A DNA stretch of 64,000 nt, taken from assembly GCF_024223415.1 (NCBI RefSeq), contig NZ_CP100500.1; one strand, given 5' to 3'. The stretch's first letter is position 1. The number at the start of each line of letters is the position of its first letter. Made by a program: the position numbers and the translations under genes. Below are positions 7,353 through 44,370 of the stretch, piece after piece. This stretch comes from Escherichia coli. GTDB lineage: Bacteria > Pseudomonadota > Gammaproteobacteria > Enterobacterales > Enterobacteriaceae. Under the pieces are notes generated by a model that was not told the origin of the DNA, made no database searches, and was given only the letters and a program-made list of their open reading frames with translations.

Positions 7353-8330
7353 TTATGCCCGGTCAACGCTAAAGGCGATGACTTCAGCCAGTGTCTCCGC
7401 ACCCAGCGCCAACATCACCAGACGATCAACACCTAATGCCACGCCGGAACAGTCAGGCATACCGACTTTCAAGGCTTCAATCAGATTCTGGTCAATGGGG
7501 TGCTGCGGCAAACCGCGCGCCGCGCGCTTACGGTTATCTTGTTCAAAGCGTTGTTGCTGCTCACGGGCATCCGTCAATTCATGGAAACCATTCGCCAGCT
7601 CAATACCTTTATAATAAACCTCAAAGCGTTCAGCGACCCGATGATCTTCGGTACTGATTTGCGCCAGTGATGCCTGGCTGGCTGGAAAGTGGTACACAAA
7701 GGTCGGTTTTTCTTTACCAATATTTGGCTCTACGCCAAAGGTAAACAGCAATTGTAGCAACGTGTCGCGGTCTTCTTCGGTATCAGCAACATTGCTCAAA
7801 TCCAGTTTCGCTGCCACTTCCCGCAGTTGCGTTTTGTCGGCAGAGAGTGGGTCAATTTCCAGATAACGCAAGAAAGCTTGTTGATAAGAAAGGCTTTCTG
7901 CTGCCGGGCAGTCCAGCACCTGTTGTAAGAGATCGTCCACCTCGTTCATCAACCGGTACATATCATAGTGCGGTCGATACCACTCCAGCATAGTGAACTC
8001 AGGGTTGTGATAACGCCCCATCTCTTCATTACGGAAACTGCGGCACAGCTGGAATACCGGCCCGCAACCGGCAACCAGCAGGCGTTTCATATGGTATTCC
8101 GGGCTGGTCATTAACCAGAGATTCATCCCCTGCGAATGCCCGGGGCCAACGAAACGTGTCTCAAACGGGACCAAATGAATATCGGTTACCGTCGCCTGGC
8201 TCATACAAGGCGTCTCCACCTCCAGCACTCCACGATCGGCAAAGAAACGACGGATCTCCGCCATAATCGCCGCGCGTTTTAATAAGTTAGGAATGGATGC
8301 GCTCGGCTGCCAGGATGCCGTTTCGCTCAT
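7353..8330 (-). CDS. epmA: Elongation factor P lysine(34) lysyltransferase EpmA (PoxA/GenX)
   Basis: ORF trimmed to Met giving 325 aa starting MSETASWQP; class-II aaRS-like (LysRS paralogue) sequence. Confidence 0.9.
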
Positions 8331-8508
8331 AGTTAAATCTCCAGTTTTTGACAAGGGCACGAAGTCTACTCGCAACGCGACGGCGAGACAAATTTTACGC
8401 AGGAATAAAACAACGGTGGGCAGTGACTAAAAAAAGCACGATCTGATGGTTTAGTAATTAAATTAATCATCTTCAGTGATAATTTAGCCCTCTTGCGCAC
8501 TAAAAAAA

Positions 8509-8522
8509 TCGATCTCGTCAAA
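8509..8522 (+). promoter_or_regulatory. Putative FNR-type dyad in frdA promoter region
   Basis: tcgatctcgtcaaa about 130 bp upstream of frdA start; resembles TTGAT-N4-ATCAA; frd operon is known FNR-activated. Confidence 0.35.
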
Positions 8523-8654
8523 TTTCAGACTTATCCATCAGACTATACTGTTGTACCTATAAAGGAGCAGTGGAATAGCGTTCGCAGACCGTAACTTTCA
8601 GGCACTTACCCTGAAGTACGGGGCTGTGGGATAAAAACAATCTGGAGGAATGTC

Positions 8655-10455
8655 GTGCAAACCTTTCAAGCCGATCTTGCCATTGTAGGCGCCGGTGGCG
8701 CGGGATTACGTGCTGCAATTGCTGCCGCGCAGGCAAATCCAAATGCAAAAATCGCACTAATCTCAAAAGTATACCCGATGCGTAGCCATACCGTTGCTGC
8801 AGAAGGGGGCTCCGCCGCTGTCGCGCAGGATCATGACAGCTTCGAATATCACTTTCACGATACAGTAGCGGGTGGCGACTGGTTGTGTGAGCAGGATGTC
8901 GTGGATTATTTCGTCCACCACTGCCCAACCGAAATGACCCAACTGGAACTGTGGGGATGCCCATGGAGCCGTCGCCCGGATGGTAGCGTCAACGTACGTC
9001 GCTTCGGCGGCATGAAAATCGAGCGTACCTGGTTCGCCGCCGATAAGACCGGCTTCCATATGCTGCACACGCTGTTCCAGACCTCTCTGCAATTCCCGCA
9101 GATCCAGCGTTTTGACGAACATTTCGTGCTGGATATTCTGGTTGATGATGGTCATGTTCGCGGCCTGGTAGCAATGAACATGATGGAAGGCACGCTGGTG
9201 CAGATCCGTGCTAACGCGGTCGTTATGGCTACTGGCGGTGCGGGTCGCGTTTATCGTTACAACACCAACGGCGGCATCGTTACCGGTGACGGTATGGGTA
9301 TGGCGCTAAGCCACGGCGTTCCGCTGCGTGACATGGAGTTCGTTCAGTATCACCCAACCGGTCTGCCAGGTTCCGGTATCCTGATGACCGAAGGTTGCCG
9401 TGGCGAAGGCGGTATTCTGGTCAATAAAAATGGCTACCGTTATCTGCAAGATTACGGCATGGGCCCGGAAACTCCGCTGGGCGAGCCGAAAAACAAATAT
9501 ATGGAACTGGGTCCACGCGACAAAGTCTCTCAGGCCTTCTGGCACGAATGGCGTAAAGGCAACACCATCTCCACGCCGCGTGGCGATGTGGTTTATCTCG
9601 ACCTGCGTCACCTCGGCGAGAAAAAACTGCATGAACGTCTGCCGTTCATCTGCGAACTGGCGAAAGCGTACGTTGGCGTCGATCCGGTTAAAGAACCGAT
9701 TCCGGTACGTCCGACCGCACACTACACCATGGGCGGTATCGAAACCGATCAGAACTGTGAAACCCGCATTAAAGGTCTGTTCGCCGTGGGTGAATGTTCC
9801 TCTGTTGGTCTGCACGGTGCAAACCGTCTGGGTTCTAACTCCCTGGCGGAACTGGTGGTCTTCGGCCGTCTGGCCGGTGAACAAGCGACAGAGCGTGCAG
9901 CAACTGCCGGTAATGGCAACGAAGCGGCAATTGAAGCGCAGGCAGCTGGCGTTGAACAACGTCTGAAAGATCTGGTTAACCAGGATGGCGGCGAAAACTG
10001 GGCGAAGATCCGCGACGAAATGGGCCTGGCTATGGAAGAAGGCTGCGGTATCTACCGTACGCCGGAACTGATGCAGAAAACCATCGACAAGCTGGCAGAG
10101 CTGCAGGAACGCTTCAAGCGCGTGCGCATCACCGACACTTCCAGCGTGTTCAACACCGACCTGCTCTACACCATTGAACTGGGCCACGGTCTGAACGTTG
10201 CTGAATGTATGGCGCACTCCGCAATGGCACGTAAAGAGTCCCGCGGCGCACACCAGCGTCTGGACGAAGGTTGCACCGAGCGTGACGACGTCAACTTCCT
10301 CAAACACACCCTCGCCTTCCGCGATGCTGATGGCACGACTCGCCTGGAGTACAGCGACGTGAAGATTACTACGCTGCCGCCAGCTAAACGCGTTTACGGT
10401 GGCGAAGCGGATGCAGCCGATAAGGCGGAAGCAGCCAATAAGAAGGAGAAGGCGA

Positions 10456-10463
<8 letters not shown>
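8655..10463 (+). CDS. frdA: Fumarate reductase flavoprotein subunit
   Basis: 602 aa, N-terminal FAD-binding GAGGAG motif; matches recalled FrdA. Confidence 0.97.
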
Positions 10464-11596
<1,133 letters not shown>

Positions 11597-28190: not shown

Positions 28191-28296
28191 CAGAAACACA
28201 GAAAAGAAGCGATTTGCCGCAATCTTAAGCAGTTGAATCGCTTTTACTGAAATTAGGTTGACGAGATGTGCAGATTACGGTTTAATGCGCCCCGTT

Positions 28297-28372
28297 GCCC
28301 GGATAGCTCAGTCGGTAGAGCAGGGGATTGAAAATCCCCGTGTCCTTGGTTCGATTCCGAGTCCGGGCACCA
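28297..28372 (+). tRNA. pheU: tRNA-Phe (anticodon GAA), pheU-type
   Basis: 76-nt cloverleaf GCCCGGATAGCTCAGTCGGTAGAGCAGGGGATTGAAAATCCCC...GGTTCGATTCCGAGTCCGGGCACCA with encoded CCA; sits where pheU lies relative to yjdC. Confidence 0.97.
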
Positions 28373-28569: not shown

Positions 28570-29832
28570 ATGGCACTGACTGACGCAAAAATCCGGGCTG
28601 CAAAGCACACTGACAAGGCTTATAAACTCACTGACGGGGCTGGCATGTTCCTGCTGGTACATCCTAATGGTTCCCGTTACTGGCGTCTCCGTTATCGCAT
28701 TCTGGGTAAGGAGAAAACTCTGGCACTTGGTGTATACCCGGAGGTTTCTCTCTCCGAAGCTCGTACAAAACGGGATGAGGCCCGAAAACTGATTTCGGAG
28801 GGGATTGACCCTTGCGAACAGAAAAGAGCTAAAAAAGTAGTCCCTGATTTACAACTCTCTTTTGAACATATTGCACGACGCTGGCATGCCAGTAATAAAC
28901 AATGGGCACAATCACACAGCGATAAGGTACTCAAAAGCCTCGAAACACACGTTTTCCCCTTTATCGGCAACCGGAACATCACAACACTCAATACCCCGGA
29001 CCTGCTTATCCCTGTTCGTGCTGCAGAAGCTAAACAAATTTATGAAATCGCCAGTCGTCTGCAGCAAAGAATATCTGCTGTAATGCGTTATGCCGTACAG
29101 TCTGGCATCATCAGATATAATCCTGCTCTGGATATGGCTGGCGCATTGACTACGGTAAAACGCCAGCATCGCCCCGCTCTTGATCTTTCTCGCCTGCCTG
29201 AACTTTTGTCGCGTATTGGCAGTTACAAGGGGCAACCTGTCACCCAGCTTGCCGTTATGCTGAATTTACTGGTTTTTATTCGTTCCAGTGAACTCAGATA
29301 CGCCCGCTGGTCTGAAATTGATATTGACAATGCCATGTGGACTATTCCAGCCGAACGCGAACCCCTGCCAGGCGTAAAATTCTCACACCGGGGCTCCAAG
29401 ATGCGAACACCACATCTTGTGCCACTCAGCAAACAGGCTGTAGCCATACTGACAGAACTACAGACATGGGCTGGTGAAAATGGTCTGATCTTTACGGGAG
29501 CACATGACCCGCGTAAACCAATCAGTGAAAATACTGTAAATAAAGCCCTGAGGGTGATGGGGTATGACACAACCCAGGATGTCTGTGGCCATGGATTCCG
29601 GGCGATGGCGTGCAGTGCATTGATTGAATCAGGTTTGTGGTCCCGCGATGCTGTGGAACGTCAGATGAGCCATCAGGAGCGTAATGGTGTACGTGCTGCG
29701 TATATCCATAAAGCAGAACATCTGGAAGAACGTCGACTGATGCTACAGTGGTGGGCAGATTTTCTGGATGCGAACAGAGATAAGGGTATCAGCCCGTTTG
29801 AATATGCAAAGATTAACAATCCATTAAAATAG
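28570..29832 (+). CDS. int: P4-type tyrosine integrase (island integrase)
   Basis: 420 aa; N-terminal MALTDAKIRAAK...YWRLRYR typical of P4-like integrases; C-terminal catalytic region with R...HGFR...Y; first gene 3' of tRNA-Phe. Confidence 0.9.
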   Translation: MALTDAKIRAAKHTDKAYKLTDGAGMFLLVHPNGSRYWRLRYRILGKEKTLALGVYPEVSLSEARTKRDEARKLISEGIDPCEQKRAKKVVPDLQLSFEHIARRWHASNKQWAQSHSDKVLKSLETHVFPFIGNRNITTLNTPDLLIPVRAAEAKQIYEIASRLQQRISAVMRYAVQSGIIRYNPALDMAGALTTVKRQHRPALDLSRLPELLSRIGSYKGQPVTQLAVMLNLLVFIRSSELRYARWSEIDIDNAMWTIPAEREPLPGVKFSHRGSKMRTPHLVPLSKQAVAILTELQTWAGENGLIFTGAHDPRKPISENTVNKALRVMGYDTTQDVCGHGFRAMACSALIESGLWSRDAVERQMSHQERNGVRAAYIHKAEHLEERRLMLQWWADFLDANRDKGISPFEYAKINNPLK

Positions 29833-31619: not shown

Positions 31620-34600
31620 ATGGATGAAAATGCTTTAGGGTTTGCCTCATACTGGCGCAACTCGCTTGCGGATGCTGAGTCAGGAAAGGGCAGTTTTGAA
31701 CGGAAAGACGCCAAAAATTTCACTCATTGGCATGGGATAGCGGCGGGACGTCTTGACGAAGCGATTGTCAGTAAATTTTTTAAGGGAGAAAAAGACGATG
31801 TCGAAACGGTCGATGTCATCTTGCGCCCAAAAGTTTATTTCCGGTTACTGCAGCATGGTAAGGACCGTTCTGCAGGTGCGCCTGATATTGTTACCCCGAT
31901 AGTGACGCCAGCCTTGCTAAGCCGTGAGGGTTTTTTATATCCGACGCCAGCGACCTCCATTCCCAGAGACCTGCTTGAACCTTTGCCAAAAGGAGCATTT
32001 TCGATTGGTGAGATTGGGCAGTATGACAAATACAAGACGACCCATACCACGTTCTCTATCAACTTTGATGACAGCGTTGATAAGACTGCCGAAACGCATG
32101 AAGAACGGGAAGCACGATATGCCGCCTTGCAGCAGGAGTGGCGTCAATATCTGTATGACTCAGAGAGGCTACTGAAGAGCGTTGCCAGCGACTGGATTGA
32201 AAAACCTGAGCAATATGAACTCGCTGAGCACGGTTATATTGTTAAAACGGCGCAATCTGGCGGTGCCAGTTTCCATATCCTTTCTCTTTATGATCACCTG
32301 CTTGTTTGCAATAAGGATGTGCCGCTCTTCAATCGATTCGCCTCGCGAGAGGTTCATGCTGCAGAGTCTTTGCTGGCCCCTGGAGCAAAATTCAGCGACA
32401 GGCTTGGACACTCCGGAGATAAGTTTCCGCTGGCAAAGGCTCAGCGCGATGCCTTAAGCCATTTTCTGGATGCTAAACATGGCGATATCCTTGCTGTTAA
32501 TGGCCCTCCTGGAACCGGAAAAACCACGCTGGTGCTTTCTATCATCGCCACGCAGTGGGCCAGAGCGGCTCTCGAAAAATCTGAGCCTCCGGTTATTATC
32601 GCGACTTCAACGAATAACCAGGCTGTAACGAACATTATTGAGGCATTCGGGAAAGACTTTTCGCAAGGTTCAGGTGCGATGGCCGGGCGATGGTTGCCAG
32701 AGCTGAAAAGCTTCGGCGCTTATTTTCCCTCAAGCAGCCGTAAAGCTGAAGCAGCCAAAAAATATCAAACTGAAGATTTCTTCAACCAGGTTGAGTCAAA
32801 AGAGTATGTAGAAGATGCACTGCTGTTTTATCTGGAAAAGGCTAAGGCAGCCTTTCCTGAAAAAGAGTGTTCATCCCCTGAAAAGGTCATTGAACTCCTG
32901 CATGGTCAGTTGGCAGCAAAATCCGAGCAACTGATAAGACTGAACGCAACATGGCAAACGTTAAGCCAGATTCGGGCTGCGCGTGAGCTTATTGCTAATG
33001 ATATTGAGCAATATCTCAATAATTTAAATAAATTACTTTCCGGACAAGAACAAAAAATCACTCTACTGAAGAGTGCTAAAACGGAATGGAAAAAATATCG
33101 CGCCGGTGAATCACTGATCTATTCATTATTTTCCTGGCTTCCGGCGGTTCGCAGTAAGCGACAGTACCAAATACAGCTGTTTCTCGAAGATAAATTAGGT
33201 GCGCTGATTGCAGGAAATCAATGGTCTGATCCTGAAACTATCGAAAGTAATATTGATGGGCTGCTCAATTCCGCTGAGCGCGAGCAAACAACATACCGGC
33301 AGCAGATTGACTCCGCCCATGAAATCATTCTTAAAGAACAGCAGGCGGTTCAGGAGTGGCAGAGACTGGCTCTTGATTTAGGGTATGAGGGCGACGAGGA
33401 ACTGAGCTTCTCACAGGCCGATGAACTGGCTGATACGCAGATTCGCTTCCCTGCATTTTTACTGACGACTCACTACTGGGAAGGTCGTTGGCTGATGGAT
33501 ATGGCCAGCATTGATGATCTGCAGGAAGAGAAGAAGAAAAAAGGCGCTAAAGGGGTAACCGCCCGTTGGCAACGTCGAATGAAACTCACTCCATGTGTGG
33601 TGATGACATGCTATATGCTGCCCGGCAATATGCAGATAAGTGAGCACAAAGGACAGCGTAAATTCGAGAAAAGTTATTTGTATGATTTTGCCGATTTACT
33701 CATTGTCGATGAAGCCGGGCAGGTGCTTCCTGAAGTGGCTGCTGCCTCGTTTGCATTAGCTAAGAAGGCATTAGTGATTGGCGATACGGAGCAGATCCCG
33801 CCAATATGGAGTATTGCTCCTGCGATTGATATCGGTAACATGCTGGCGGAAAAAATTCTGTCTGGCAGTACGCAAGAAGAGATTACCGAGAAATATACGG
33901 CAATCGCAGACCTTGGTAAAAGTGCCGCATCTGGCAGCGTTATGAAAATAGCGCAGTTTGCTTCGCGCTATCAATATGATCCCGAACTGGCTCGTGGTAT
34001 GTACCTATATGAACACCGCCGGTGCTACGACAATATTATTGGATACTGTAATACGCTCTGCTATCACGGTAAGTTGTTGCCTAAAAGAGGGCGTGAAGAG
34101 AGCAATTTAATGCCCGCAATGGGGTATCTCCATATTGATGGTAAAGGAGAGCTGGCAAGTAGTGGAAGTCGATATAATTTGCTTGAGGCTGAAACGATAG
34201 CGGTCTGGTTGGCAGAGAACCAGCAAAATATTGAAGCGCATTACGGTAAATCGCTTCATGAAGTTGTCGGTATTGTGACGCCTTTTAGCGCTCAGGTATC
34301 CACTATCAAACAGGTGCTGGGCAAACAAGGTATCAGTACAGGCACGAATGAAAAGTCGCTCACAGTGGGCACCGTGCACTCTCTTCAGGGAGCGGAAAGA
34401 GCGATTGTGATATTCTCGCCAGTCTATTCAAAACATGAAGACGGCGGGTTTATTGATAGCGATAACAGCATGCTGAATGTTGCAGTCTCCCGTGCGAAGG
34501 ACAGTTTTCTGGTCTTCGGCGATATGGACCTGTTTGAGGTCCAGCCAGCCTCATCGCCACGGGGATTACTGGCAAAATACCTCTTTGAGTCAGAGAAGAA

Positions 34601-35135
34601 TGCGCTCTCTTTTGATTATAAAGAGCGTAAGGATTTAAAAACCGCCGGGACCAAAATCTACACACTTCATGGTGTGGAGCAACATGATAATTTCCTGAAT
34701 CAGACATTTGAAAATACCAGTAAACACATCACGATAGTTTCTCCATGGCTGACCTGGCAAAGGCTGGAGCAAACCGGTTTTCTTGATTCCATGATTGCGG
34801 CGTGTTCACGTGGAATTAACGTCACGATAGTCACTGACAGAAGCTACAACACTGAACATAATGATTTTGAGAAGCGAAAAGAGAAGCAGCAGAACTTTAA
34901 AGCGGCGCTGGAGAAACTGAATGCGCTGGGTATTGCTACAAAGCTGGTAAACCGTGTTCATAGCAAAATTGTTATTGGTGATGATGGTTTGCTGTGCGTG
35001 GGATCGTTCAACTGGTTTAGTGCGACACGGGAAGCGCGATATGAACGATACGATACATCAATGGTTTATTGCGGTGATAACCTGAAGGGTGAGATTGAGG
35101 CTATTTATAATAGTCTTGAGAGGCGGCAGGTTTAG
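31620..35135 (+). CDS. Superfamily-1 (Upf1/DNA2-like) helicase fused to C-terminal PLD-family (HKD) nuclease domain; candidate single-gene defence protein
   Basis: 1171 aa. Walker [10 protein letters not shown] (nt 32502-32528, aa 295-303); Walker B/motif II DEAGQ (nt 33708-33722, aa 697-701); SF1 motifs [18 protein letters not shown] and [16 protein letters not shown]; C-terminal HSKIVIGDD...GSFNWF = HxK(x4)D(x6)GSxN PLD signature (nt 34959-35030). About 290-aa N-terminal region and about 390-aa insert between Walker A and B have no motif I recognise. Confidence 0.75.
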
Positions 35136-35243: not shown

Positions 35244-36743
35244 TTATCTTCTGTCCGGAAGAATCAGAGGCTGTGGTTTCAGACTGTCTGCCGGTACATT
35301 CCTGTCTCCGTTAAAAACAATAACGGGTTCATTATCTTCGTCTGTCAGCGGATTGAATGGCGGTATATTTTCAGTACGAATGCCGGTCAGCCACTGAAAA
35401 ATACCTGCGAAATGACGGGCACTGATTTTTCTGCTGACGGACTGATGAGACGTGATGTCACTGGCGGTAATAATCAGGGGAACGCTGTAGCCTCCTTGTA
35501 TATGGCCATCATGATGAACAGGATTAGCACTGTCGCTGACCGACAGACCATGGTCAGAAAAGTAAAGCATGGCAAAATGACGGGAGTGCCGGCGAAGGAT
35601 ACCATCAAGCTGACCGAGAAAGTTATCCAGTTTACTGATGCTGGCGAGGTAACAGGCAATCTTTCGGGGATACTGCTCCAGGTAATGATTCGGCCAGGAG
35701 TTAAGTCGGTCACACGGATTCGGATGAGAGCCAATCATGTGCAGGAATATCACCTTCGGAGAGGATTTATCCGCCAGTGCACGTTCTGTTTCCTGTAACA
35801 ACAACATGTCATCCGTTTTACGGGAAGCAAAGCTGCCTTTCTTGAGGAAAACGGTATGCTCCGCATCAGAAGCAATAACAGAGATGCGTGTATCATGCTC
35901 CCCCAGTTTTCCCTGATTGGATATCCACCATGTGCTGTATCCTGCTTTTGCTGCCAGCGCCACCACGTTGTTGCCGGAGTCAGGGTTCTGCTCATAGTCA
36001 TAAATCAATGTCCGGCTCAGGGAAGGTACGGTACTGGCTGCTGCCGATGTATAGCCGTCAATAAATAAACCGGGAGCCGTATTCAGCCATGGTGTGGTTG
36101 GCACGGGATAGCCATATACCGACATATAATCCCTGCGCACACTCTCACCAGTAACGATAACAATCGTGTCATACAACGGTGTTCCCGGCAGGATTTTCCA
36201 GTTGTCAGCCCCGTGCTGACTCAGTTGTTTATAACGCTGCATTTCACGCAATGTGTCAGTTGTTCCCACAACAATTCCTTTAACCATCCGCAACGGCCAG
36301 CTGTTTACAGAGCATAATACGAACAGCAGCAGTGCCAGCCAGTTACGGTGACCGCGGTGGTGTGTCCGCCAGAAAATCACCATGAATACCAGAATCGCGG
36401 CACTGACCAGAAAATGATAAACAGGAATCATCCCGGTAAACTCTGCAGCCTCATCAGCCGTGGTCTGCAGCAACGCGACAATAAAACTGTTGTTGATTTT
36501 ACCGTACGTCATACCCGCAGGCGCATACAGTGCACAACAGAACAGAAATAACAGCGTTGTAATGGATGTGAGGGTATTTCTGTGTGCAAGGAGCAGAAGG
36601 AGAAACAGAAGCAGCACATTTCCTGTGGCATTCTTCTCAGTGTATCCGCATGCAATTGTGATTATCACAGAAATAACAAAAAAGAATAAAAACAATAAAA
36701 TCCGGGGTGTGTCGCCCGGACAAAACAGTTTTCTGATATTCAT
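35244..36743 (-). CDS. Sulfatase-family inner-membrane protein, probable phosphoethanolamine transferase (YhbX/YbiP/OpgE-like)
   Basis: 499 aa; N-terminal multi-TM region then periplasmic domain with alkaline-phosphatase-superfamily motifs (VTGESVRRDY, HMIGSHPNPCD, YFSDHG); AT-rich flanks. Confidence 0.6.
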   Translation of the reverse strand: MNIRKLFCPGDTPRILLFLFFFVISVIITIACGYTEKNATGNVLLLFLLLLLAHRNTLTSITTLLFLFCCALYAPAGMTYGKINNSFIVALLQTTADEAAEFTGMIPVYHFLVSAAILVFMVIFWRTHHRGHRNWLALLLFVLCSVNSWPLRMVKGIVVGTTDTLREMQRYKQLSQHGADNWKILPGTPLYDTIVIVTGESVRRDYMSVYGYPVPTTPWLNTAPGLFIDGYTSAAASTVPSLSRTLIYDYEQNPDSGNNVVALAAKAGYSTWWISNQGKLGEHDTRISVIASDAEHTVFLKKGSFASRKTDDMLLLQETERALADKSSPKVIFLHMIGSHPNPCDRLNSWPNHYLEQYPRKIACYLASISKLDNFLGQLDGILRRHSRHFAMLYFSDHGLSVSDSANPVHHDGHIQGGYSVPLIITASDITSHQSVSRKISARHFAGIFQWLTGIRTENIPPFNPLTDEDNEPVIVFNGDRNVPADSLKPQPLILPDRR

Positions 36744-36924
36744 CGGAGTATATCGACAACATTATTATGAAGAGAACAGGATAATAAAAATCAGAAATTA
36801 TCTGTAAAACAGATAACAGACAACCCTGCAGCAATAGACTGCAGGGTGTTTCTGTTTAATTGCAGAAGATATACAATTATATTAATTACAGAATATTCGT
36901 GATTATCTCTCAGGAACAGTGTTG

Positions 36925-37665
36925 TCAGAAGTTATAAGTCACACCAAGCATGATGTCATGACTTTTAACATCAACTTCTGACTTATATTTATCGCCCCAC
37001 TCGTCCTTGTAACTCACACTGCTGTCACCTGCATCAAGATAGCGATAGCTGAGGTCCAGAGCGATATCCGGGGTTACGTCATAGCGGACACCCGCGCCAA
37101 GGTTCCATGCGAAGTTGTCAGCAGAGCCTGAACGTGACAACGATTCGCGACCACTGCTTCCGTACTCATAATCCCAGGTACTGATACCGGTTGTTTTCTG
37201 GTGAATTCTGGCGTAGCCAATCCCTGCAGATATCCAAGGTGTGAATGCGCTGTCATTCCGGAAGTCATAGTACGCATTCAGCATTAGTGTGTTGACTGAC
37301 ACCTCATTCTTCAGGTCATCACGCCAGTAACCACCTGACCAACTGTCTTTATCTACGTTATACTTCGAATCAGCTTTTCCACGAGCGTAAAACTCCAGTT
37401 CTGTACGAACCGGAATACTGAACTGCGGATAAAAATCATAACCAGCCGCGATACCACCACTGAATACCGTATCATGGTCATCGCCGCCTTTATACTTTGA
37501 CGTTTCTTCCTCATCTCCTGACAGGAAACGCTGGTCTGAAAGTGACACCACAGAGGTACCGGCTTTACCGGTCAGATAAAAACCGCTTTTACCTTCCTCA
37601 GCACCTGCATTTGCTGCAAATACACAGGCTGCGGCCACCACTGAAACAGCAAAAACCTTTTTCAT
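36925..37665 (-). CDS. Outer-membrane beta-barrel protein, MipA/OmpV-like
   Basis: 246 aa; signal peptide MKKVFAVSVVAAACVFAANA, alternating amphipathic strands, C-terminal ...GVTYNF with terminal Phe; resembles MipA family but unverified. Confidence 0.5.
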   Translation of the reverse strand: MKKVFAVSVVAAACVFAANAGAEEGKSGFYLTGKAGTSVVSLSDQRFLSGDEEETSKYKGGDDHDTVFSGGIAAGYDFYPQFSIPVRTELEFYARGKADSKYNVDKDSWSGGYWRDDLKNEVSVNTLMLNAYYDFRNDSAFTPWISAGIGYARIHQKTTGISTWDYEYGSSGRESLSRSGSADNFAWNLGAGVRYDVTPDIALDLSYRYLDAGDSSVSYKDEWGDKYKSEVDVKSHDIMLGVTYNF

Positions 37666-37741
37666 TTCAATTATCTCCGTTATTGCTCCGTTGCTGCAAG
37701 CAGTACTCAGTGCATTTTAAAACCCGCCATGCGATAGCCTC

Positions 37742-37782
37742 AATCGAATAAAATCGATCGAATCGATCGATGATATCGATCG
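37742..37782. repeat. Short tandem/palindromic ATCGATCG repeat tract
   Basis: caatcgaataaaatcgatcgaatcgatcgatgatatcgatcg: three or four copies of atcgatcg immediately upstream of the MipA-like gene. Confidence 0.6.
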
Positions 37783-38152
37783 TCATTAACCAGAAATTTT
37801 TATCGTATTCAGTCAGCACAGACACAACAAATGCATGCCATGCAGGCAGCCATGCCCCGTCGCGACAGATGGTAGCAGTGGGCTGGCGAAGAGCAGAATT
37901 AATAAAATTTGTTTATTCTGTCAGGAGATAAGGTGTCACCTGTTCATGAACACAATTAAGGAAGAGACATACATGAGCTGACTGGCAGTCCAGAGTGCAT
38001 GCGGTTACAAGCCGGAAAGGTGAACCGGTATAACCAGTGAGCAGAGTTTGTGAAGGGGGGATATAAAAAAGCCCACTGCATGGCAGCGGGTAAAGAGTCA
38101 GTTATTTCCGGCGTTTTTCAAGGTAGTTGTCGCCTGATGTAATAAAATTACG

Positions 38153-38524
38153 TTATGCCGCTTCTTTTTCTGGATTCAGATAAACTGCCTGAATGAGTTC
38201 CCAGTCACGCAACTGTTTGCTCCAGCGCTCAGGATGACGCTTGCGAGCTTCGCGATAAACTTTTTTTCTGGCTTCCAGTATTTGTGCATCAATTCCGCGA
38301 TGGCGTTCATCCGGAGTAACATACTTAATACCGCTGTGCTTGTGTTCCAGGTTGTACCATTGCGTGAACTTGCTTAACCAACTTCTGGCTTCATCTATGG
38401 TTCGAAAACCATTCTCCGGCCACCATGAACAATACTTAATCGTCCGGAAGAGCGATTCGGAATAAAGAAGTGTTACTGGCAGTTCTTTCATCGCATCAGT
38501 GAAAACCAGCAGGGCACTGCTCAC
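38153..38524 (-). pseudogene. Transposase C-terminal fragment (DDE integrase core, IS3/IS481-like)
   Basis: 123-aa ORF with ...WYNLEHKHSGIKYVTPDERHRG... typical of transposase C-termini; lacks N-terminal domain. Confidence 0.45.
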
Positions 38525-38942
38525 CAGAGCAACACAGGAAAGTGAACCCGAACAAAAGTTCCTGTACCATTTTCTCCCAGCAGACGTGAGGCTTGTTCCA
38601 GTGACTCTGGTATACGTCCCAGCCGGACATCAAGTGCGCCGATGGCTATTGCCTGAAATCGCATCGTACAGCAAATCACCAACAGGACACCGACAGACAT
38701 TAAAGGTAACCCCCTGTAATCCAGTAGTTCCGACAGCCAGCGGTCATTTAGGGAGTCAGAAAACCAATCGCCAGAATCGTGCCCGGAAAGGCATAACCCA
38801 GCGACGCCACTCTCATCACACCGCGCCTGAACAGTGGCATAGCGTTGAGGAATTCCGGGCATTCCAGACTACGAGCAGACTGACAAAAATTACGACAAAG
38901 CGTTGAAGGAAGCCAGCGCGCGGACTGACAGGACTTTACCAT
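38521..38942 (-). pseudogene. ABC-transporter permease fragment (ThiP/FbpB-like), frameshifted
   Basis: Two overlapping short ORFs containing permease-like segments LGYAFPGTILAIGFLTP and ...IPESLEQASRLLGENGTGTFVRVHFPVL; far too short for an intact permease. Confidence 0.35.
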
Positions 38943-38991
38943 AAAAACACAGGCTAACCGCGCCTGCGTTTTTAATGACGGATAAACAGAA

Positions 38992-40971
38992 TCAGGTGCC
39001 GATTATGCCGCCGTCGGCTTTTACGATAACGACAGTTGAGGAGCGCGGACGACCAGCCTTATCGCCGTCAGGCCAGCTTGATACTGCCGTCGGATGCTGC
39101 GGATCGCTAAGCCCTTCGCTTGGCTCGCCAGGGTGCTGGATGTTAATAAACAGCGTCCGGTTATCCGGAGTGAACGCGATGCCGGTGATTTCGCAGCCGC
39201 GCGGGCCGGTCAGGAAGCGGCGGAACTCATTGGTACCGGGGATCGTCGCCACCATCTGGTTGTTGCCCATGCCTTTGTAATCTTTAATATTTATGGTTGA
39301 TGACGACACGTCGGTCTGGATCCATAGCACGCCGCGGTGATCGAAGCTCAGGCCATCGGCGCTGCCGAATTCCGCACCCTTCATGCTGCCTTTGGTTTCC
39401 GGTTTGTCTGTATCGGTGCGACCGCCCATCACAAGAATATCCCAGGCAAACTGCAGCGCGGTCGGGTCACCGTTATGCTCCAACCAGTGAATGATGTGGC
39501 CGTAAACGTTTTTGGCGCGCGGGTTGGCCGCATCCACTGGCGCTTTTCCTTCCGTACCGCGATCGCTGTTGTTGGTGAGCGTGCAGTAAACGCTGCCGGC
39601 GTGATATGGATCGACCGCAATCCACTCCGGGCGGTCCATTTTAGTGGCCCCCACGGCGTCTGCCGCCAGACGGGTTTTAATCAACAGGTCGCCCTGGTTT
39701 TCAAACCCTTTACTGGCGTCGAGCCCATTTTGTCCGAACACCAGCGGTAGCCACTCGCCTTTGCCGTCGTCGTTAAATTTCGCCACGTACAGAGTGCCTT
39801 TTTCCAGCAGGTGCATGTTGGCTTTGCGATCCTGCGGGTTGAATTTTCCTTCCGAGACAAATTTATATATGTATTCGAATTTCTGGTCATCGCCCATATA
39901 GACCACAACGCGGTTATCCGGGGCAATTGTCACCGCTGCGCCTTCGTGTTTGATGCGACCAAGCGCGGTGTGCTTGCGCGGCACTGAATGCGGATCGTAT
40001 GGATCGATTTCCACCACCCAGCCGAAGCGGTTCGGCTCGTTCGGCGTGGCGTCGACGCTGAACCTTTTATCCACTTCGTTCCAGCGGTAAGAGTCGTCGC
40101 TCCCGCTGATACCGTAACGTTTTTCCAGCGGGTTCATCTCTGCTTTTTTTACGAAAATATCGGACCAGTTCTCTTCACACGTCAGATAGGTGCCCCACGG
40201 CGTAAATCCGTTGGCACAGTTCTGCATGGTGCCGAGAATGATTTCGCCTTTCGGATCGTCAACTGTTTGCATCAGTGGGTTATGCAGCGCCGGACCGGTG
40301 ATTTTCATCGGCGTGTTAACGGTGATGCGGCGTGCGAACGATGACGGGCGCACCACTTCCCAGCCCAGGGGCACTTTTTTTACTTCAATGACCGACACGC
40401 CCATCGCGTTCTGGCCTTTAAGAGCTTTATCGGCGCTCCAGTTGGCATCGCCATCTTTAAACAGTAGACCGTTATCGATGTATTCATGGTTTATGGCAAG
40501 CAGGCCGTGATCGGAGCTGTTCCCGCCCTGCGGCAGGCTAAACCACGCCATGCCGTCGTGGTGCATCCCGGCCTGCGCCGCCTGTTCTTCCGTGGTGTTG
40601 CTACCGTCGGTTTTAAAAACCGGCAGATTTCCGGCAATCCCGGTGGCGTCGCCCCATTTGTAGAAGGGCTTCGCGATGTATCCTTCCGGCACGATAACGG
40701 TATCTTCCGTGGAAACCGGCAGGCTGGTGAAACCGAGCGTCGTCGCTTTGCCGAGGTTACCGCTTGCTTTGGAGACCACTTTCGCCAGCGCGTTTTCCTG
40801 TTTCAGCAGAAATGGGAACGCTGCCGCGGCACCGGCGACCGTGCCTGCCTGTAACAGACGGCGGCGTGACAAATAGACTTCCGCCACCTGCGAAAACGCG
40901 CGGTTATCGCTCGGGTTACTGATTTCTTCACTATGCTCACGTTTGAATAAAGTTTTTAACGGTCTGCCCAT
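38992..40971 (-). CDS. Tat-exported PhoX-family alkaline phosphatase (DUF839-like)
   Basis: 659 aa; twin-arginine signal SRRRLLQAGTVAGAAAAFPFL; length and composition as recalled for PhoX family; not part of K-12 core. Confidence 0.6.
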   Translation of the reverse strand: MGRPLKTLFKREHSEEISNPSDNRAFSQVAEVYLSRRRLLQAGTVAGAAAAFPFLLKQENALAKVVSKASGNLGKATTLGFTSLPVSTEDTVIVPEGYIAKPFYKWGDATGIAGNLPVFKTDGSNTTEEQAAQAGMHHDGMAWFSLPQGGNSSDHGLLAINHEYIDNGLLFKDGDANWSADKALKGQNAMGVSVIEVKKVPLGWEVVRPSSFARRITVNTPMKITGPALHNPLMQTVDDPKGEIILGTMQNCANGFTPWGTYLTCEENWSDIFVKKAEMNPLEKRYGISGSDDSYRWNEVDKRFSVDATPNEPNRFGWVVEIDPYDPHSVPRKHTALGRIKHEGAAVTIAPDNRVVVYMGDDQKFEYIYKFVSEGKFNPQDRKANMHLLEKGTLYVAKFNDDGKGEWLPLVFGQNGLDASKGFENQGDLLIKTRLAADAVGATKMDRPEWIAVDPYHAGSVYCTLTNNSDRGTEGKAPVDAANPRAKNVYGHIIHWLEHNGDPTALQFAWDILVMGGRTDTDKPETKGSMKGAEFGSADGLSFDHRGVLWIQTDVSSSTINIKDYKGMGNNQMVATIPGTNEFRRFLTGPRGCEITGIAFTPDNRTLFINIQHPGEPSEGLSDPQHPTAVSSWPDGDKAGRPRSSTVVIVKADGGIIGT

Positions 40972-41393
40972 TGCGGTTTCCTTTCAAAAAATCGATTTCA
41001 AGGGGAATCATTTTTATGCACGTGAGTCTACGGAAAGATTGTTACGGAAATATAACAATTGTCATAAAAAACCGGCGATAAAATCATCTATGGTCGGGAC
41101 GCGGTTTCAGGTATGATGTGAGGCTAGAATTCTGAACGCTCTCTTTTGTTGAGCATATATGGACGTCCCGGGTGAGGCAAGTACTGGTTCGATGCGGTTT
41201 GCGACCATATATCCGGCGTCGTTAGTAGGTTCAATGACCTGCGCCATGATGTTATCCGGGCCCTATTTCCTAATCACTACACCGGTATTTGATTACCCAG
41301 GTCAACTTCAGACTGTTACAGGGGCGGTAGCCGTTATCTCATCAGTGAATGTAAACTCAGTTAAAAATATTTTCTATAACTTACTGTTTTTAT

Positions 41394-41603
41394 TTAATTC
41401 ATCACAACGGCCTTCTGCATATTAAAATCAATACTATCGCTCAAAACACGCCAGATGATTCTTGTCAGCTTGTTCGCCAGCGCACCAGTGGTTTTCAGGA
41501 ACCCTCGACGGGCTTCCATCCTTTGCAGACAAATACTCAGACTGTCAGTGAGCTTTTTCACACAGCGCATTACAGACTGAAATGGCACACTGAATTTGGT
41601 CAC
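41394..41603 (-). pseudogene. Transposase C-terminal fragment (IS110-family-like)
   Basis: 69-aa ORF ending ...ALANKLTRIIWRVLSD..., resembling IS110-family transposase C-termini. Confidence 0.3.
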
Positions 41604-41649
41604 CTGAACAGAGGTGATATGCTCACCTCAGAACAAGACTGGTGCCCTA

Positions 41650-42350
<701 letters not shown>

Positions 42351-42356
42351 CTAGCT

Positions 42357-42393
<37 letters not shown>

Positions 42394-42732
42394 TAATTAC
42401 ACTGTGGGTTGACGCCGGAAGAATCAGAGAACAGATACCGTTCTTACTGTAAAACGTGGCTAATATTAATTGAGCACTGCAGTGTTCAGAGCACAAAGAA
42501 GAAAAAAGATGTGTGCGAATGCCTGTAATGTGTTAAAAGAATGTTCCGCGTTTCCGGTACGCTTTTCGTAACTAACAATGCAGGGTGACGTAACGCTGGT
42601 TGTGCCGGAAACGCGTCCCTCCCCCTATCTTTCCTGTTTGGATTTGCCCCTATATTTCTGGATTATCCGACAAAACCGGCGTGAAGTATTACTCTCGTCG
42701 CCCAGCACCATAAGGATAACGCCCATAAAATC

Positions 42733-43098
42733 ATGAAACTTTTCTTCCAGATTGGATACAATCAGGCCGTATCCCGTATTACAGGCTTATCACGTGTGAC
42801 AGTCAGTCTCTGGGTGTGTTCAGGAACATTCCCTGAAATGTCAACCCGGCCTCCAGAGCGAGGACTTCTGGACCCATGGAGGGAGTGGTTAAAAGAGCAA
42901 CGAGAAAGTGGTAACTTCGGCGCGTGGCTGCAAGGATGGCAGCTGATGCTGCGGCTATATGTGAGGCAATCAGCAGTCGCTGGAATAATGGGGGTTGTCG
43001 AAAGTCATGTAAATCGACTAAAAATGCTGAAAGGCCAGATGTATGGTCGAGCCGGATTTGAACTACTCAGGCAGAGGGTCATGAGTCCACTGGCATGA
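42733..43098 (+). CDS. Hypothetical protein with AlpA-like HTH N-terminus
   Basis: 121-aa ORF; N-terminal ...AVSRITGLSRVTVSLWVCSGTFPE resembles AlpA-family phage/ICE regulators; weak. Confidence 0.3.
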   Translation: MKLFFQIGYNQAVSRITGLSRVTVSLWVCSGTFPEMSTRPPERGLLDPWREWLKEQRESGNFGAWLQGWQLMLRLYVRQSAVAGIMGVVESHVNRLKMLKGQMYGRAGFELLRQRVMSPLA

Positions 43099-43306
43099 AA
43101 ATCTCCATCCAGGTTGCGTAAGAGCCACTTTTCATCCGTCGTCGATATCTGGGATAGCCATAGTGAAATAAAAAGCTGTCTGAATTAAATTATTTTGCAC
43201 ATATATTTTAATCCTGCACTGAATTAAGAATGGGTAATCAGTGACCGCTTGGACGGTCACTTTTAAGAGAAGGCATTAACAGAGAATGGTAAACAGGCTC
43301 AATATA

Positions 43307-43757
43307 TTATGTTGTTGGCACTACAGATGAATGATGGGATGATATTTTCCAATCCTTTCCATCCCACTCATAAGCGAAACTATAGCGTGCTGAAACTTGT
43401 TTTTTATCTTCAAAAGTAAACGTGTAATTCCCTGTATCAAGAGCCATATTGCATCCAATGCGAATAGTTCTGAAGTTTATTTCTCCAACAGTTTTTTTTT
43501 CAAAAAATGCTCAAAATAGTCAACTCTTTCTGCATCTGTAATCCTAATTTTTTTTGATACTGTGGGCAGTAAGATCGCATCACTTAAATAGTTATCAGCA
43601 ACCTTCTTGGCATCACCTGTTTTTAATGATTCATTCCAGCGATCGAATAACCTTTCAATGTCTTTACTATCTACCCGAATACACTTAACATTATCTACGT
43701 CACTTGCCCACGACGCTCCAGAAAACAGACACAGAATTAAAATATTTATTTTTTCAT
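43307..43757 (-). pseudogene. Small secreted NTF2-like (SnoaL/DUF4440-like) protein gene interrupted at two homopolymer tracts
   Basis: AGGAGG then ATG at 43755-43757 followed by A6 and immediate stop; +1 frame encodes signal peptide KINILILCLFSGASWASD...; second shift at A9 tract (plus-strand T9, 43492-43500); restoring A7 and A10 gives about 150-aa ORF ending ...WDGKDWKISSHHSSVVPTT. Confidence 0.5.
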
Positions 43758-43991
43758 AACTCCTCCTGATCAGCCTGAAACTTTTTTAAAGTTTAATCAT
43801 ATTAATACAGTGCAACTATTTGATAGTAAAAACGATGTTCTCTATTTTGTTAATAGATACTTCCTATTGTGTATATATTATGAGATTATTAAGAATAATA
43901 CTCTCTGGGTCGTAGAGACAGGGTATAAGTCACAGGCTGGTGTGGTTCGGATGTTCTTGCCCCCTCAATATCAGACTGCTATTGTATCTTA

Positions 43992-44370
43992 AGTTAACGT
44001 TATCCGCTGACGTCGATATTCCCGTGGTGAGAGATAACCTAACGCACTATGCGGATGGTTTTCATTGTAATGCTCGAACGCCTCTGCAAGGTTATGCAAT
44101 GCCGTTATTACATTCAGTTTCGGCATGAACGCGATGTAGTCTTCATTCACGTTTTCACGAACCTTTCTGCCATTCTATTGCTCTGAGGGCTACTGACTGC
44201 CGTCGTGCAGGGCTCCAGATTCAACTCTCTGGCGAATTGCCGTGTTTCATGAGCCGTATAAGCCGAACCGTTATCCGTCCGCCACTGGATTGCTCGTTCC
44301 GGTCCTTTATCGCCAAAGCGTTTTTCTATCGCTCCTAACATCACATCCTGCACTGTCGGCTTTATCGTAA
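43992..44370 (-). pseudogene. Diverged IS2-group 3' fragment (partial InsD-like orfB plus terminal repeat)
   Basis: About 80% nucleotide similarity to the IS2 3' region at 30120-30520; encodes ...[45 protein letters not shown] similar to InsD. Confidence 0.7.

Follow-up and report, generated by a model that had tools for sequence, protein, structure and literature searches.

The phoX gene of the Escherichia coli window analysed here (the window being the whole 64,000-nucleotide stretch of contig NZ_CP100500.1) is very probably an intact, horizontally acquired gene of Cronobacter type that lies in a self-contained 2.2-kb patch of promoter, gene and terminator within a mosaic, IS-riddled tRNA-Phe island. 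It would encode a PhoB-induced and Tat-exported phosphatase, and the permease and transposase debris around it would be unrelated wreckage of island assembly. The features on which this reading is built are collected in Table 1.

Table 1. Coordinates, strand and supporting evidence of features in and around the phoX patch
Feature	Position	Strand	Evidence
tRNA-Phe gene, integration site of the phoX island	28297..28372	+	ARAGORN
Tyrosine recombinase gene after tRNA-Phe	~28570-29832		annotation of the identical E41 island
IS3-family integrase-core (rve) remnant truncating the permease fragment	38153..38524	-	Pfam rve_3 and NCBIfam transpos_IS3 (C-terminal end), RefSeq
FbpB/AfuB/PhnU2-type two-domain ABC permease pseudogene fragment	38438..38896	-	RefSeq, three-frame reading
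Cronobacter-like patch, 2,175 bp (promoter, phoX, terminator)	38897..41071	-	blastn against L003, junction sequences, GC
Terminator-like hairpin CAGGC-gcggtta-GCCTG followed by TGTTTTTAT	38941..38966	-	sequence reading, hairpin scan
phoX CDS, predicted PhoX-family (PF05787) alkaline phosphatase precursor, 659 aa	38992..40971	-	ORF list, Pfam, PDB, fold, dN/dS
Predicted Tat signal peptide, residues 1-63	40783..40971	-	TIGR01409, orthologue conservation, hydropathy, AF2 disorder
Shine-Dalgarno AGGA, 7 nt before ATG	40979..40982	-	direct reading; AGGAA invariant in orthologue alignment
Predicted -10 hexamer TAGACT, separated by 10 bp from the candidate Pho box upstream	41025..41030	-	TAnACT kept in five of five orthologous promoters
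Pho-box-like putative PhoB site TTGTTATATTTCCGTAAC	41041..41058	-	consensus score, orthologue conservation, rarity
Non-coding DNA and transposase debris upstream of phoX	41072..43098	.	Pfam, RefSeq transposase pseudogenes

Family, fold and predicted export of the phosphatase

What kind of protein does the gene encode? The list of open reading frames gives an ATG-started frame of 659 amino acids with exact boundaries at 38992 and 40971 on the minus strand, and RefSeq names the gene "PhoX family protein". The profile search for PhoX/DUF839 that had been proposed as a check places the product well above threshold in PF05787 (formerly DUF839; E=1e-165; 553 bits, cutoff 24), with positions 2-515 of the 515-position profile aligned to residues 80-615 and thus the whole domain covered. 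In addition, the crystallised PhoX of P. fluorescens (PDB 3zwu) is matched across residues 70-658 with E=2.4e-167, and an AF2 model of the product (pTM 0.83, mean pLDDT 75.8) finds 4a9v and 3zwu as its top Foldseek matches with a target-normalised TM of 0.93-0.94 and an rmsd of 1.9-2.1 Å, the remaining PDB matches having a TM of about 0.3 or less relative to the query. The Pseudomonas enzyme (3ZWU, 4A9V, 4A9X, 4ALF, 4AMF) aligns along the full length of the mature window protein, at 49% identity over 569 aligned columns and across a genus boundary.

Conservation at the level of single residues points in the same direction. An alignment of 17 PhoX sequences, drawn from Enterobacteriaceae and Neisseriaceae and including the crystallised enzyme of Pseudomonas, contains 317 columns that are conserved in at least 16 of the 17, and the window protein does not depart from the consensus at a single one of them, the TCEEN, MDRPEW and IQHPGE blocks included. 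C252, E343 and D362 correspond to, and are identical with, Cys179, Glu273 and Asp292 of P. fluorescens PhoX, which we take to be active-site or Fe3+/Ca2+ cofactor ligand residues of PhoX, the comparison here being one of conservation alone. As a measure of selection, dN/dS is 0.066 at a dS of 0.32 in comparison with the Cronobacter orthologue. The product is, as judged from sequence and modelled fold, a PhoX-family alkaline phosphatase, for which phosphomonoesterase activity would be expected. The sequence-only reading had recognised PhoX-like architecture, which profile, structure match and fold bear out, and it had named an assignment to an unrelated beta-propeller family lacking phosphatase residues as the outcome that would speak against it; PhoX is the best match and its conserved columns are all kept.

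The same reading had seen a clear twin-arginine signal, and this too stands. After a long n-region, the motif S35-R-R-R-L-L-Q41 (SRRRLLQ, nt 40849-40869) is followed by the h-region AGTVAGAAAAFPFLL, which is moderately hydrophobic with a hydropathy of 1.67, and the AxA rule suggests cleavage at A-L-A63|K64. The NCBIfam model TIGR01409 passes (17.8 against a cutoff of 16.7) and the Pfam TAT_signal profile remains below its gathering threshold (16.7 versus 22.7). M1 and SRRR[L/F]LQ are invariant across five PhoX orthologues, and the AF2 model leaves residues 1-70 disordered. The n-region preceding the arginine motif is, with 33 residues, longer than that of P. fluorescens PhoX. The motif and the Tat dependence of PhoX homologues suggest that the window protein is exported via Tat.

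Predicted regulatory signals and the Cronobacter-like patch

A Pho box upstream of the gene had been put forward as something to look for. A candidate is found at 41058-41041 and is conserved in orthologues, but it is degenerate: TTGTTATATTTCCGTAAC agrees with the Pho-box consensus CTGTCATAWAWCTGTCAY at 13 of 18 positions, where five orthologous promoters reach 14-15, and it is a single box with both half-sites imperfect. Nevertheless, out of the roughly 128,000 positions in the window just 22 reach such a score. Its core TGTTATA-N5-GTAAC is invariant in the five orthologous phoX promoters and occurs once in the window, with 0 occurrences expected by chance. In the orthologue alignment the candidate Pho box, the -10 hexamer and the Shine-Dalgarno sequence are the only strongly conserved blocks of the promoter. 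The distance of 10 bp between box and -10 hexamer is the one known from the promoters of phoA and pstS in E. coli. A sigma-70-like element, ATGACA-16-AACAAT, overlaps the candidate Pho box and could allow Pho-independent expression of phoX, and in a generic sigma-70 scan the number of promoters did not differ significantly from chance (4 versus 2.6 expected). At the other end, the terminator-like hairpin begins 26 nt past the phoX stop codon and is preserved both in Cronobacter and in the plasmid copies; the hairpin scan reports it on the plus strand. An Rfam search of 36000-44000 yielded no matches. Since phoX comes with a candidate Pho box, a predicted -10 hexamer, a Shine-Dalgarno sequence and a terminator, all its own, it forms a stand-alone unit.

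Where does this unit come from? The nearest relatives are the PhoX proteins of Cronobacter, with 94-96% amino acid and about 92% nucleotide identity. Those of C. universalis, C. sakazakii, C. malonaticus, C. turicensis and C. dublinensis have the same length of 659 residues, and the PhoX of five Cronobacter species falls into one 90% protein cluster with the window protein. Blastn against a Cronobacter-type locus (L003) gives 91.9% identity over 41071-38897 and no match beyond, which leaves this patch of about 2.2 kb as the sole DNA here that is common to native phoX loci. Its GC content is 55-56%, compared with 44-49% for the flanking DNA. The Cronobacter and the window gene have the candidate Pho box, the -10 hexamer, the Shine-Dalgarno sequence and the terminator in common, yet Cronobacter phoX sits in a stable chromosomal context, whereas the window gene lies on 2,175 bp transplanted into an E. 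coli island. With a nucleotide identity of 92% no sampled Cronobacter is the direct donor. As the Cronobacter-like DNA stops 13 bp upstream of the candidate Pho box, any activating sites further upstream have been lost.

Island setting, distribution and competing explanations

The patch is part of an island with the hallmarks of tRNA integration (P4-type integrase, pheU/pheV), namely a position immediately 3' of a tRNA gene, an adjacent tyrosine recombinase gene, an accessory distribution and a shift in GC, so that the earlier description of phoX as island cargo holds. Compared with strain E41 the window matches only from 28249 rightward: the same island is integrated at pheV in E41 and here at the tRNA-Phe gene on the dcuA/dsbD side (left flank dcuA/dsbD). 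The permease fragment and transposase debris that had been said to flank the gene are present as well, at about 38438-38896, 38153-38524 and 41614-43098. On the upstream side IS3-type HTH_Tnp_1 and HTH_21 fragments occupy 41614-42329 and another fragment follows at 42769-43098, RefSeq transposase pseudogenes falling within 41614-43098. The segment 41072-41620 was found solely alongside this phoX patch, in 94 genomes; within it, an ORF at 41394-41603 is suspected to be an IS110-family remnant, and the segment travels with the patch.

Among 5426 complete E. coli genomes, 98 (1.8%) carry a full-length phoX, in agreement with the earlier statement that it lies outside the K-12 core; BEN2908, E41 and an APEC O78:H51 strain are examples of carriers. 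With an identity of at least 99% among the island copies, their intactness says little about selection within E. coli. A 112-nt phoX relic occurs in about 360 further E. coli genomes and may mark a third capture of the gene. Moreover, an intact 659-residue PhoX of Cronobacter type is encoded on the plasmids pJNE25-005_2 and pRM14721 and two others, flanked by IS remnants, one of which, of the IS3 type, cuts 3 nt off the start of the candidate Pho box. This plasmid copy has 93.5% nucleotide identity to the window copy and 94.4% over 2,320 bp to Cronobacter; being closer to Cronobacter and having different boundaries, it represents an independent capture. About half of the chromosomal carriers listed come from chickens or other birds, APEC strains included, some records being resequenced versions of the same strain. 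Literature searches returned no paper on PhoX in an E. coli island.

The claim of the sequence-only reading that did not survive is that of a decayed phosphate-scavenging module, according to which phoX would be the last survivor of a phosphatase and an organophosphorus ABC importer that were acquired together and then decayed; we regard this history as very unlikely. It draws on the position of the permease fragment, co-directional with and directly downstream of phoX and labelled 'iron ABC transporter permease' pseudogene by RefSeq. This fragment is frameshifted and has lost its N-terminus at the junction with the phoX patch and its C-terminus to the IS3 remnant, and its longest ORF has no match in Pfam and NCBIfam. 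A protein stitched from a three-frame reading retrieved short or partial proteins only, one of which supplied genomic context. The closest intact relative (83% amino acid identity) resides in a chromosomal context of mtfA-SBP-permease-ATPase-ldt-cob without phoX, and a 70%-identical intact ABC system of strain CX08 was used for context in addition. The best NCBIfam similarities of the intact homologous system are to the 2-aminoethylphosphonate transporters PhnS2/U2/T2, which would suit such a module, though all of its matches are far below the cutoffs. Also compatible with a module is a less decayed version of the permease (L008), with 51 genomes continuing into an ATPase pseudogene and a ugpB-like relic. 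The ugpB-like piece (strain SCU-115) was considered as a duplicate of native ugpB and rejected: being about 90% identical to native ugpB and internally deleted, it is foreign. Similarly, on the plasmids PhoX is accompanied by a phytase-like esterase (PF13449), so that, with the ugpB-like relic of the islands, phosphorus-acquisition genes turn up repeatedly near phoX in the mobile DNA of E. coli. Nevertheless, the native loci, obtained by exact-protein look-ups, have different phoX neighbours in each genus examined: an inositol/MFS cluster on one side and a MetNIQ-like transporter on the other in Cronobacter, whereas Klebsiella and Enterobacter have an integrase and a ZnuA/ABC-3 transporter there, so that in these two genera at least a metal ABC transporter adjoins the gene. 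Among the loci examined, native phoX loci are without the permease and native permease loci without phoX. The Cronobacter-like homology ends at 38897, exactly where the permease fragment starts without its N-terminus and without a binding-protein gene, and the junction 38896/38897 is thus a rearrangement breakpoint that falls within an ORF rather than between operons. As phoX furthermore has its own predicted promoter and a hairpin separates it from the permease, the two do not form a phosphate-scavenging operon, and on junction and context evidence the permease was rejected as an ancestral partner of phoX.

If the patch arrived by itself, is its gene of any use to the host? It could be an inert passenger that is intact by virtue of recent island spread, poorly expressed, unexported or devoid of cofactor, and of no fitness value. 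The decay of the surrounding genes, with heavy pseudogenisation of both phoX flanks, and the low prevalence mean that phoX may simply be hitch-hiking; the near-identity of the island copies has left little time for decay, the 112-nt relic suggests that phoX decay is a common fate in E. coli, and the promoter DNA is cut short just beyond the candidate Pho box. Against this stands the intactness of promoter, Shine-Dalgarno sequence, signal peptide, conserved residues and terminator where every neighbour within 2 kb is broken. The gene is also intact in at least two island arrangements, at two integration sites and in many strains, and the independently captured plasmid copy is likewise intact. 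In addition, the machinery that the protein would need, TatABC and PhoBR, is present in E. coli. We thus consider an inert passenger unlikely. Alternatively, a functional PhoX could have a narrower or different main activity, such as hydrolysis of nucleotides or phosphodiesters or oxidation of phosphite, or a role in host interaction and colonisation in poultry. P. fluorescens PhoX oxidises phosphite weakly besides its monoesterase activity (PMC12704751), a C. jejuni phoX mutant shows altered polyphosphate and biofilm and a small defect in chick colonisation (PMC3197622), and birds are well represented among the carriers. However, sequence and fold place the window protein with the broad-specificity PhoX monoesterases and no active-site column diverges, and the share of birds is a raw listing in which a strain may recur in several records through resequencing, so that such a different role appears highly doubtful. 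The preferred reading remains that of an intact, self-contained Cronobacter-type phosphatase unit.

Proposed working and significance in E. coli

The gene product is likely a PhoB-induced, Tat-exported, zinc-independent periplasmic phosphatase, and the following course of events could be imagined. Upon phosphate starvation phosphorylated PhoB would bind to the candidate box and activate transcription from TAGACT 10 bp downstream, with a transcript predicted to start near 41018. The 659-residue precursor, for whose translation from the ATG at 40971 the sequence and the conservation of the N-terminus speak, would be exported by TatABC via SRRRLLQ and cleaved after Ala63. The mature beta-propeller, carrying the Fe3+/Ca2+ cofactor typical of PhoX, would then hydrolyse phosphomonoesters in the periplasm and free phosphate, which would give the host a second, zinc-independent alkaline phosphatase beside its own PhoA.

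PhoA and the window protein would be of one physiological type, periplasmic phosphomonoesterases of the Pho regulon, yet they are unrelated in fold and superfamily. PhoA is a Zn/Mg enzyme that is exported unfolded through the Sec pathway and requires DsbA. In contrast, members of the PhoX family are Fe/Ca beta-propellers with a Tat signal (PMC5454538; PMC12704751). The PhoX of C. jejuni, a distant orthologue in the same family, is an experimentally demonstrated Tat substrate induced by a phosphate-sensing two-component system (PMC3197622), but differs in that its host has no other alkaline phosphatase and in that it stands under PhosSR rather than PhoBR.

PhoX of this type is well known, ordinary and already named in RefSeq, and the finding as such matters little past correct annotation. 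It could be speculated that Cronobacter-type phoX has been captured more than once by E. coli mobile elements because a zinc-independent phosphatase wired to PhoB is positively selected, making it a fitness factor of avian and extraintestinal pathogenic lineages. We hold this to be quite unlikely; if true, the captured gene would pay off under zinc withholding or with a rich supply of organic phosphate or phytate, as in the poultry gut or in extraintestinal infection. What the sequence does suggest is that a small minority of E. coli, with many poultry-associated or APEC strains among them, possess a second alkaline phosphatase of a class unlike PhoA, Fe/Ca-dependent and Tat-exported. This is of relevance for alkaline phosphatase phenotypes and phoA fusions in wild strains and for studies of APEC and ExPEC under limiting phosphate or zinc. 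The gene came as a plug-and-play unit whose candidate Pho box the PhoB of the host should read, a tidy small case of one gene transplanted together with its regulatory site between enterobacterial genera.

Identity and export signal of the island PhoX

The phoX open reading frame lies where the sequence-only reading had placed it, starts with ATG and encodes 659 residues, and an HMM search bears out its assignment to PhoX, covering the whole Pfam profile PF05787 (E=1e-165). Residues 70-658 align over 569 columns, at 49% identity, with the crystallised PhoX of P. fluorescens (3zwu/4a9v; E=2.4e-167). These two entries are also the only close structures to an AlphaFold2 model of the protein (pTM 0.83, low confidence only in the signal peptide and two short loops), with a target-normalised TM of 0.93-0.94 and an rmsd of about 2 Å, the remaining matches having a TM of about 0.3 each. 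In an alignment of 17 PhoX proteins, taken from Enterobacteriaceae and Neisseriaceae and including the crystal sequence, the window protein never departs from the majority residue in the 317 columns where 16 or more sequences agree, and the blocks TCEEN, MDRPEW, SxDGL and IQHPGE are invariant. C252, E343 and D362 align with Cys179, Glu273 and Asp292 of the P. fluorescens enzyme, residues that the 2014 paper on the PhoX structure reportedly assigns to the Fe3+/Ca2+ active site. An unrelated propeller family without phosphatase residues, which the sequence-only reading had named as the finding that would refute it, does not describe this protein. The gene is an orthodox member of the PhoX family, and its RefSeq name is already correct. 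The family is widespread and well characterised, with members in 22% of bacterial genomes (PMC12704751), and its cofactor contains iron instead of zinc (PMC5454538). A literature search found no paper on this gene in E. coli.

At the N-terminus, SRRRLLQ (residues 35-41) is followed by AGTVAGAAAAFPFLL, a stretch of mean hydropathy 1.67, then by one lysine and A-L-A63. NCBIfam TIGR01409 matches marginally over its cutoff and Pfam TAT_signal under its own. Orthologues of Cronobacter, Franconibacter, Klebsiella and Enterobacter share without variation the Met start, an n-region of the same unusual length and SRRR[L/F]LQ, which validates start codon and motif. By analogy with a PhoX family member of C. 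jejuni, for which Tat dependence was proven by experiment (PMC3197622), the E. coli protein is predicted to be Tat-dependent.

Coordinates of phoX, its flanks and related loci (window positions unless a locus is named)
Feature	Position	Strand	Remarks
phoX	38992-40971	-	
Putative Pho box	41058-41041	-	TTGTTATATTTCCGTAAC
Sigma-70-like hexamers	41038-41065	-	ATGACA-16 nt-AACAAT
Terminator-like hairpin	38966-38941	-	CAGGC-gcggtta-GCCTG and T-run, past the phoX stop codon
ABC permease fragment	~38438-38896		frameshifted; flank of phoX
IS3-type integrase-core remnant	38153-38524		flank of phoX
Transposase pseudogenes	41614-43098		flank of phoX
tRNA-Phe gene	28297-28372		start of island shared with strain E41
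1171-aa protein	31620-35135	+	AAA_11 and AAA_12 (SF1-helicase-like), C-terminal PLDc_2 nuclease domain
499-aa phosphoethanolamine transferase	35244-36743	-	sulfatase domain, EptA/B N-terminal domain
246-aa outer-membrane beta-barrel protein	36925-37665	-	adjoins the transferase
Additional pieces in SCU-115	L008 4083-5884		missing in window, left of 38456
Plasmid phoX regions	L009 (pJNE25-005_2) 7481-11163; L010 (pRM14721) 7482-11163		four E. coli plasmids; intact, 93.5% nucleotide identity to window
112-nt phoX relic	L002 (AMSCJX02 chromosome) 4001-4112		corresponds to window 39998-40109; "alkaline phosphatase" pseudogene
K. pneumoniae phoX locus	L005 3560-9826		
Enterobacter sp. phoX locus	L006 5001-9827		

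A transplanted gene with predicted promoter and terminator

Where does the gene come from? GC content is 55-56% across phoX versus 44-49% on both sides. The closest proteins, at 94-96% identity and within one 90% cluster with the window protein, belong to Cronobacter species; next come those of Franconibacter (about 81%) and then of Enterobacter, Klebsiella and Kosakonia (76-78%). Homology to the Cronobacter-type locus at the DNA level is confined to a patch (window 38897-41071, 91.9% identity) consisting of the open reading frame with 100 bp before it and 95 bp after it. With 92% nucleotide identity, the sampled Cronobacter do not include the direct donor, and a dN/dS of 0.066 (dS 0.32) between the window and Cronobacter genes indicates that phoX evolved as a functional gene.

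Alignment of the upstream regions of five phoX orthologues revealed three strongly conserved blocks only, TGTTATA-N5-GTAACA, TAnACT at a distance of 10 bp downstream, and the Shine-Dalgarno sequence AGGAA. The sequence-only reading had proposed to look for a Pho box; the first block agrees with the consensus for such boxes in E. coli, CTGTCATAWAWCTGTCAY, at 13 of 18 positions in the window and at 14-15 in the orthologous promoters. Scores of at least 13 occur at only 22 of about 128,000 window positions, and the window has a single occurrence of the invariant core pattern, where chance would give none. In the phoA and pstS promoters the distance to the -10 hexamer is also 10 bp. The terminator-like hairpin downstream is also kept in the Cronobacter and plasmid copies and, together with the conserved promoter blocks, suggests that the 2.2 kb that moved constitute promoter, gene and terminator.

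Sigma-70-like hexamers with 9 of 12 matches overlap the Pho box; their Cronobacter counterpart reads GTGTCC / AACACA and is not conserved, and the promoter scan overall gave no significant excess over shuffles. If this promoter were active, phosphate-independent expression would be possible, peculiar to the E. coli copy. Past the window junction, 3' of the phoX terminator, the Cronobacter and plasmid copies read ...GGTTTAGAATCATCTGTTATATA (about 10085-10110 in the Cronobacter-type locus L003 and 8975-9000 in L009), of which CTGTTATATA, upstream of MetNIQ-like transporter genes, looks similar to half of a Pho box.

The permease fragment and the island

Is phoX what remains of a decayed phosphate-scavenging module, as had been suggested? 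The flanks are as described, a permease fragment and transposase debris. Read in three frames, the fragment represents the C-terminal portion of a permease of the two-domain FbpB/AfuB/PhnU2 type. In 51 genomes including E. coli SCU-115 it is continued by the remains of an ATPase gene and by a ugpB-like relic, which has an internal deletion and shares about 90% identity with the native gene; in the window an IS3 remnant stands in place of this part. The ATPase gene of SCU-115 is frameshifted, and the ugpB-like relic, from a second gene of Pho-regulon type, keeps its signal-peptide end. The SCU-115 permease is also without its N-terminus and without a binding-protein gene. An NCBIfam search with the ABC system gave 2-aminoethylphosphonate, thiamine and ferric systems as best matches, all far under their cutoffs. 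The following observations speak against the module. The Cronobacter-like DNA ends exactly at the N-terminal break of the permease (…CAACGCTTTGTCG up to the junction, TAATTTT beyond it), phoX is absent from the mtfA-SBP-permease-ATPase-ldt(-cob) loci where intact permease relatives occur, and the native neighbours of phoX differ from genus to genus. They argue for a joining of phoX and permease by rearrangement during island assembly, and we conclude from these sequence comparisons that the two would not have arrived together in a single operon. Genes related to phosphorus do recur near phoX in mobile DNA of E. coli (the ugpB relic, a phytase-like esterase on plasmids), which could be coincidence.

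The island is 99.9% identical over 32.7 kb to that of E. coli E41 (at the tRNA-Phe end, window 28249-28372 against L001 9258-9381), which contains an integrase, IS3, the 1171-aa helicase/PLD protein, the phosphoethanolamine transferase, the outer membrane protein, phoX, ICE remnants and iha. Since the E41 island sits at pheV beside yqgA, whereas the left flank in the window is dcuA/dsbD, the other tRNA-Phe locus, the island has used both tRNA-Phe genes. The complete patch is found in 98 of 5426 complete E. coli genomes, 94 times on chromosomes (at least 99% identity) and four times on plasmids (about 93.5%), always annotated as "PhoX family protein/phosphatase". Among 57 chromosomal carriers listed, about half have an avian source, chickens or other birds (BEN2908 and APEC O78:H51 are examples), and about a third a human one, raw counts in which some records are one strain resequenced. 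The 1171-aa protein, directly after integrase and IS3 and named only "AAA domain-containing protein" in RefSeq, may have a role in defence or against mobile elements. The 499-aa transferase is most like CptA, yet far under every CptA, EptA and MCR cutoff.

Other phoX lineages in E. coli and its relatives

The plasmid copies have 2,320 bp in common with Cronobacter at 94.4% identity, and their boundaries differ from those of the island copy, so they were captured independently. On the plasmids phoX is convergent with a gene for a 447-aa "esterase-like activity of phytase" protein (PF13449, E=1e-60) between IS remnants, and an IS3 fragment removes the first 3 nt of the Pho box. About 360 further E. 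coli genomes and plasmids, phoX-less and including the B-strain derivative C41(DE3), have only the 112-nt relic, next to IS elements or fragments and an autotransporter gene. Being nearer to Cronobacter and the plasmid copy (94.6% each) than to the window (92.9%), the relic may be the remnant of a separate, older acquisition. Among the proteins labelled E. coli, some (P0035, P0042, P0047) belong with PhoX of the Klebsiella type, with 76% identity. In Klebsiella and Enterobacter the genes after phoX (76-78%) encode a metal transporter of ABC_tran / ABC-3 / ZnuA type and a protein of 416 aa without a Pfam match. The K. pneumoniae gene stands directly after a phage-type integrase and so looks like island cargo there too.

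In sequence, fold, signal and promoter the window gene shows no departure from the PhoX family. It was correctly identified and is an ordinary accessory gene, the sole correction being that the adjoining debris is no former operon partner. PhoBR and TatABC of E. coli should be able to run the transplanted unit.
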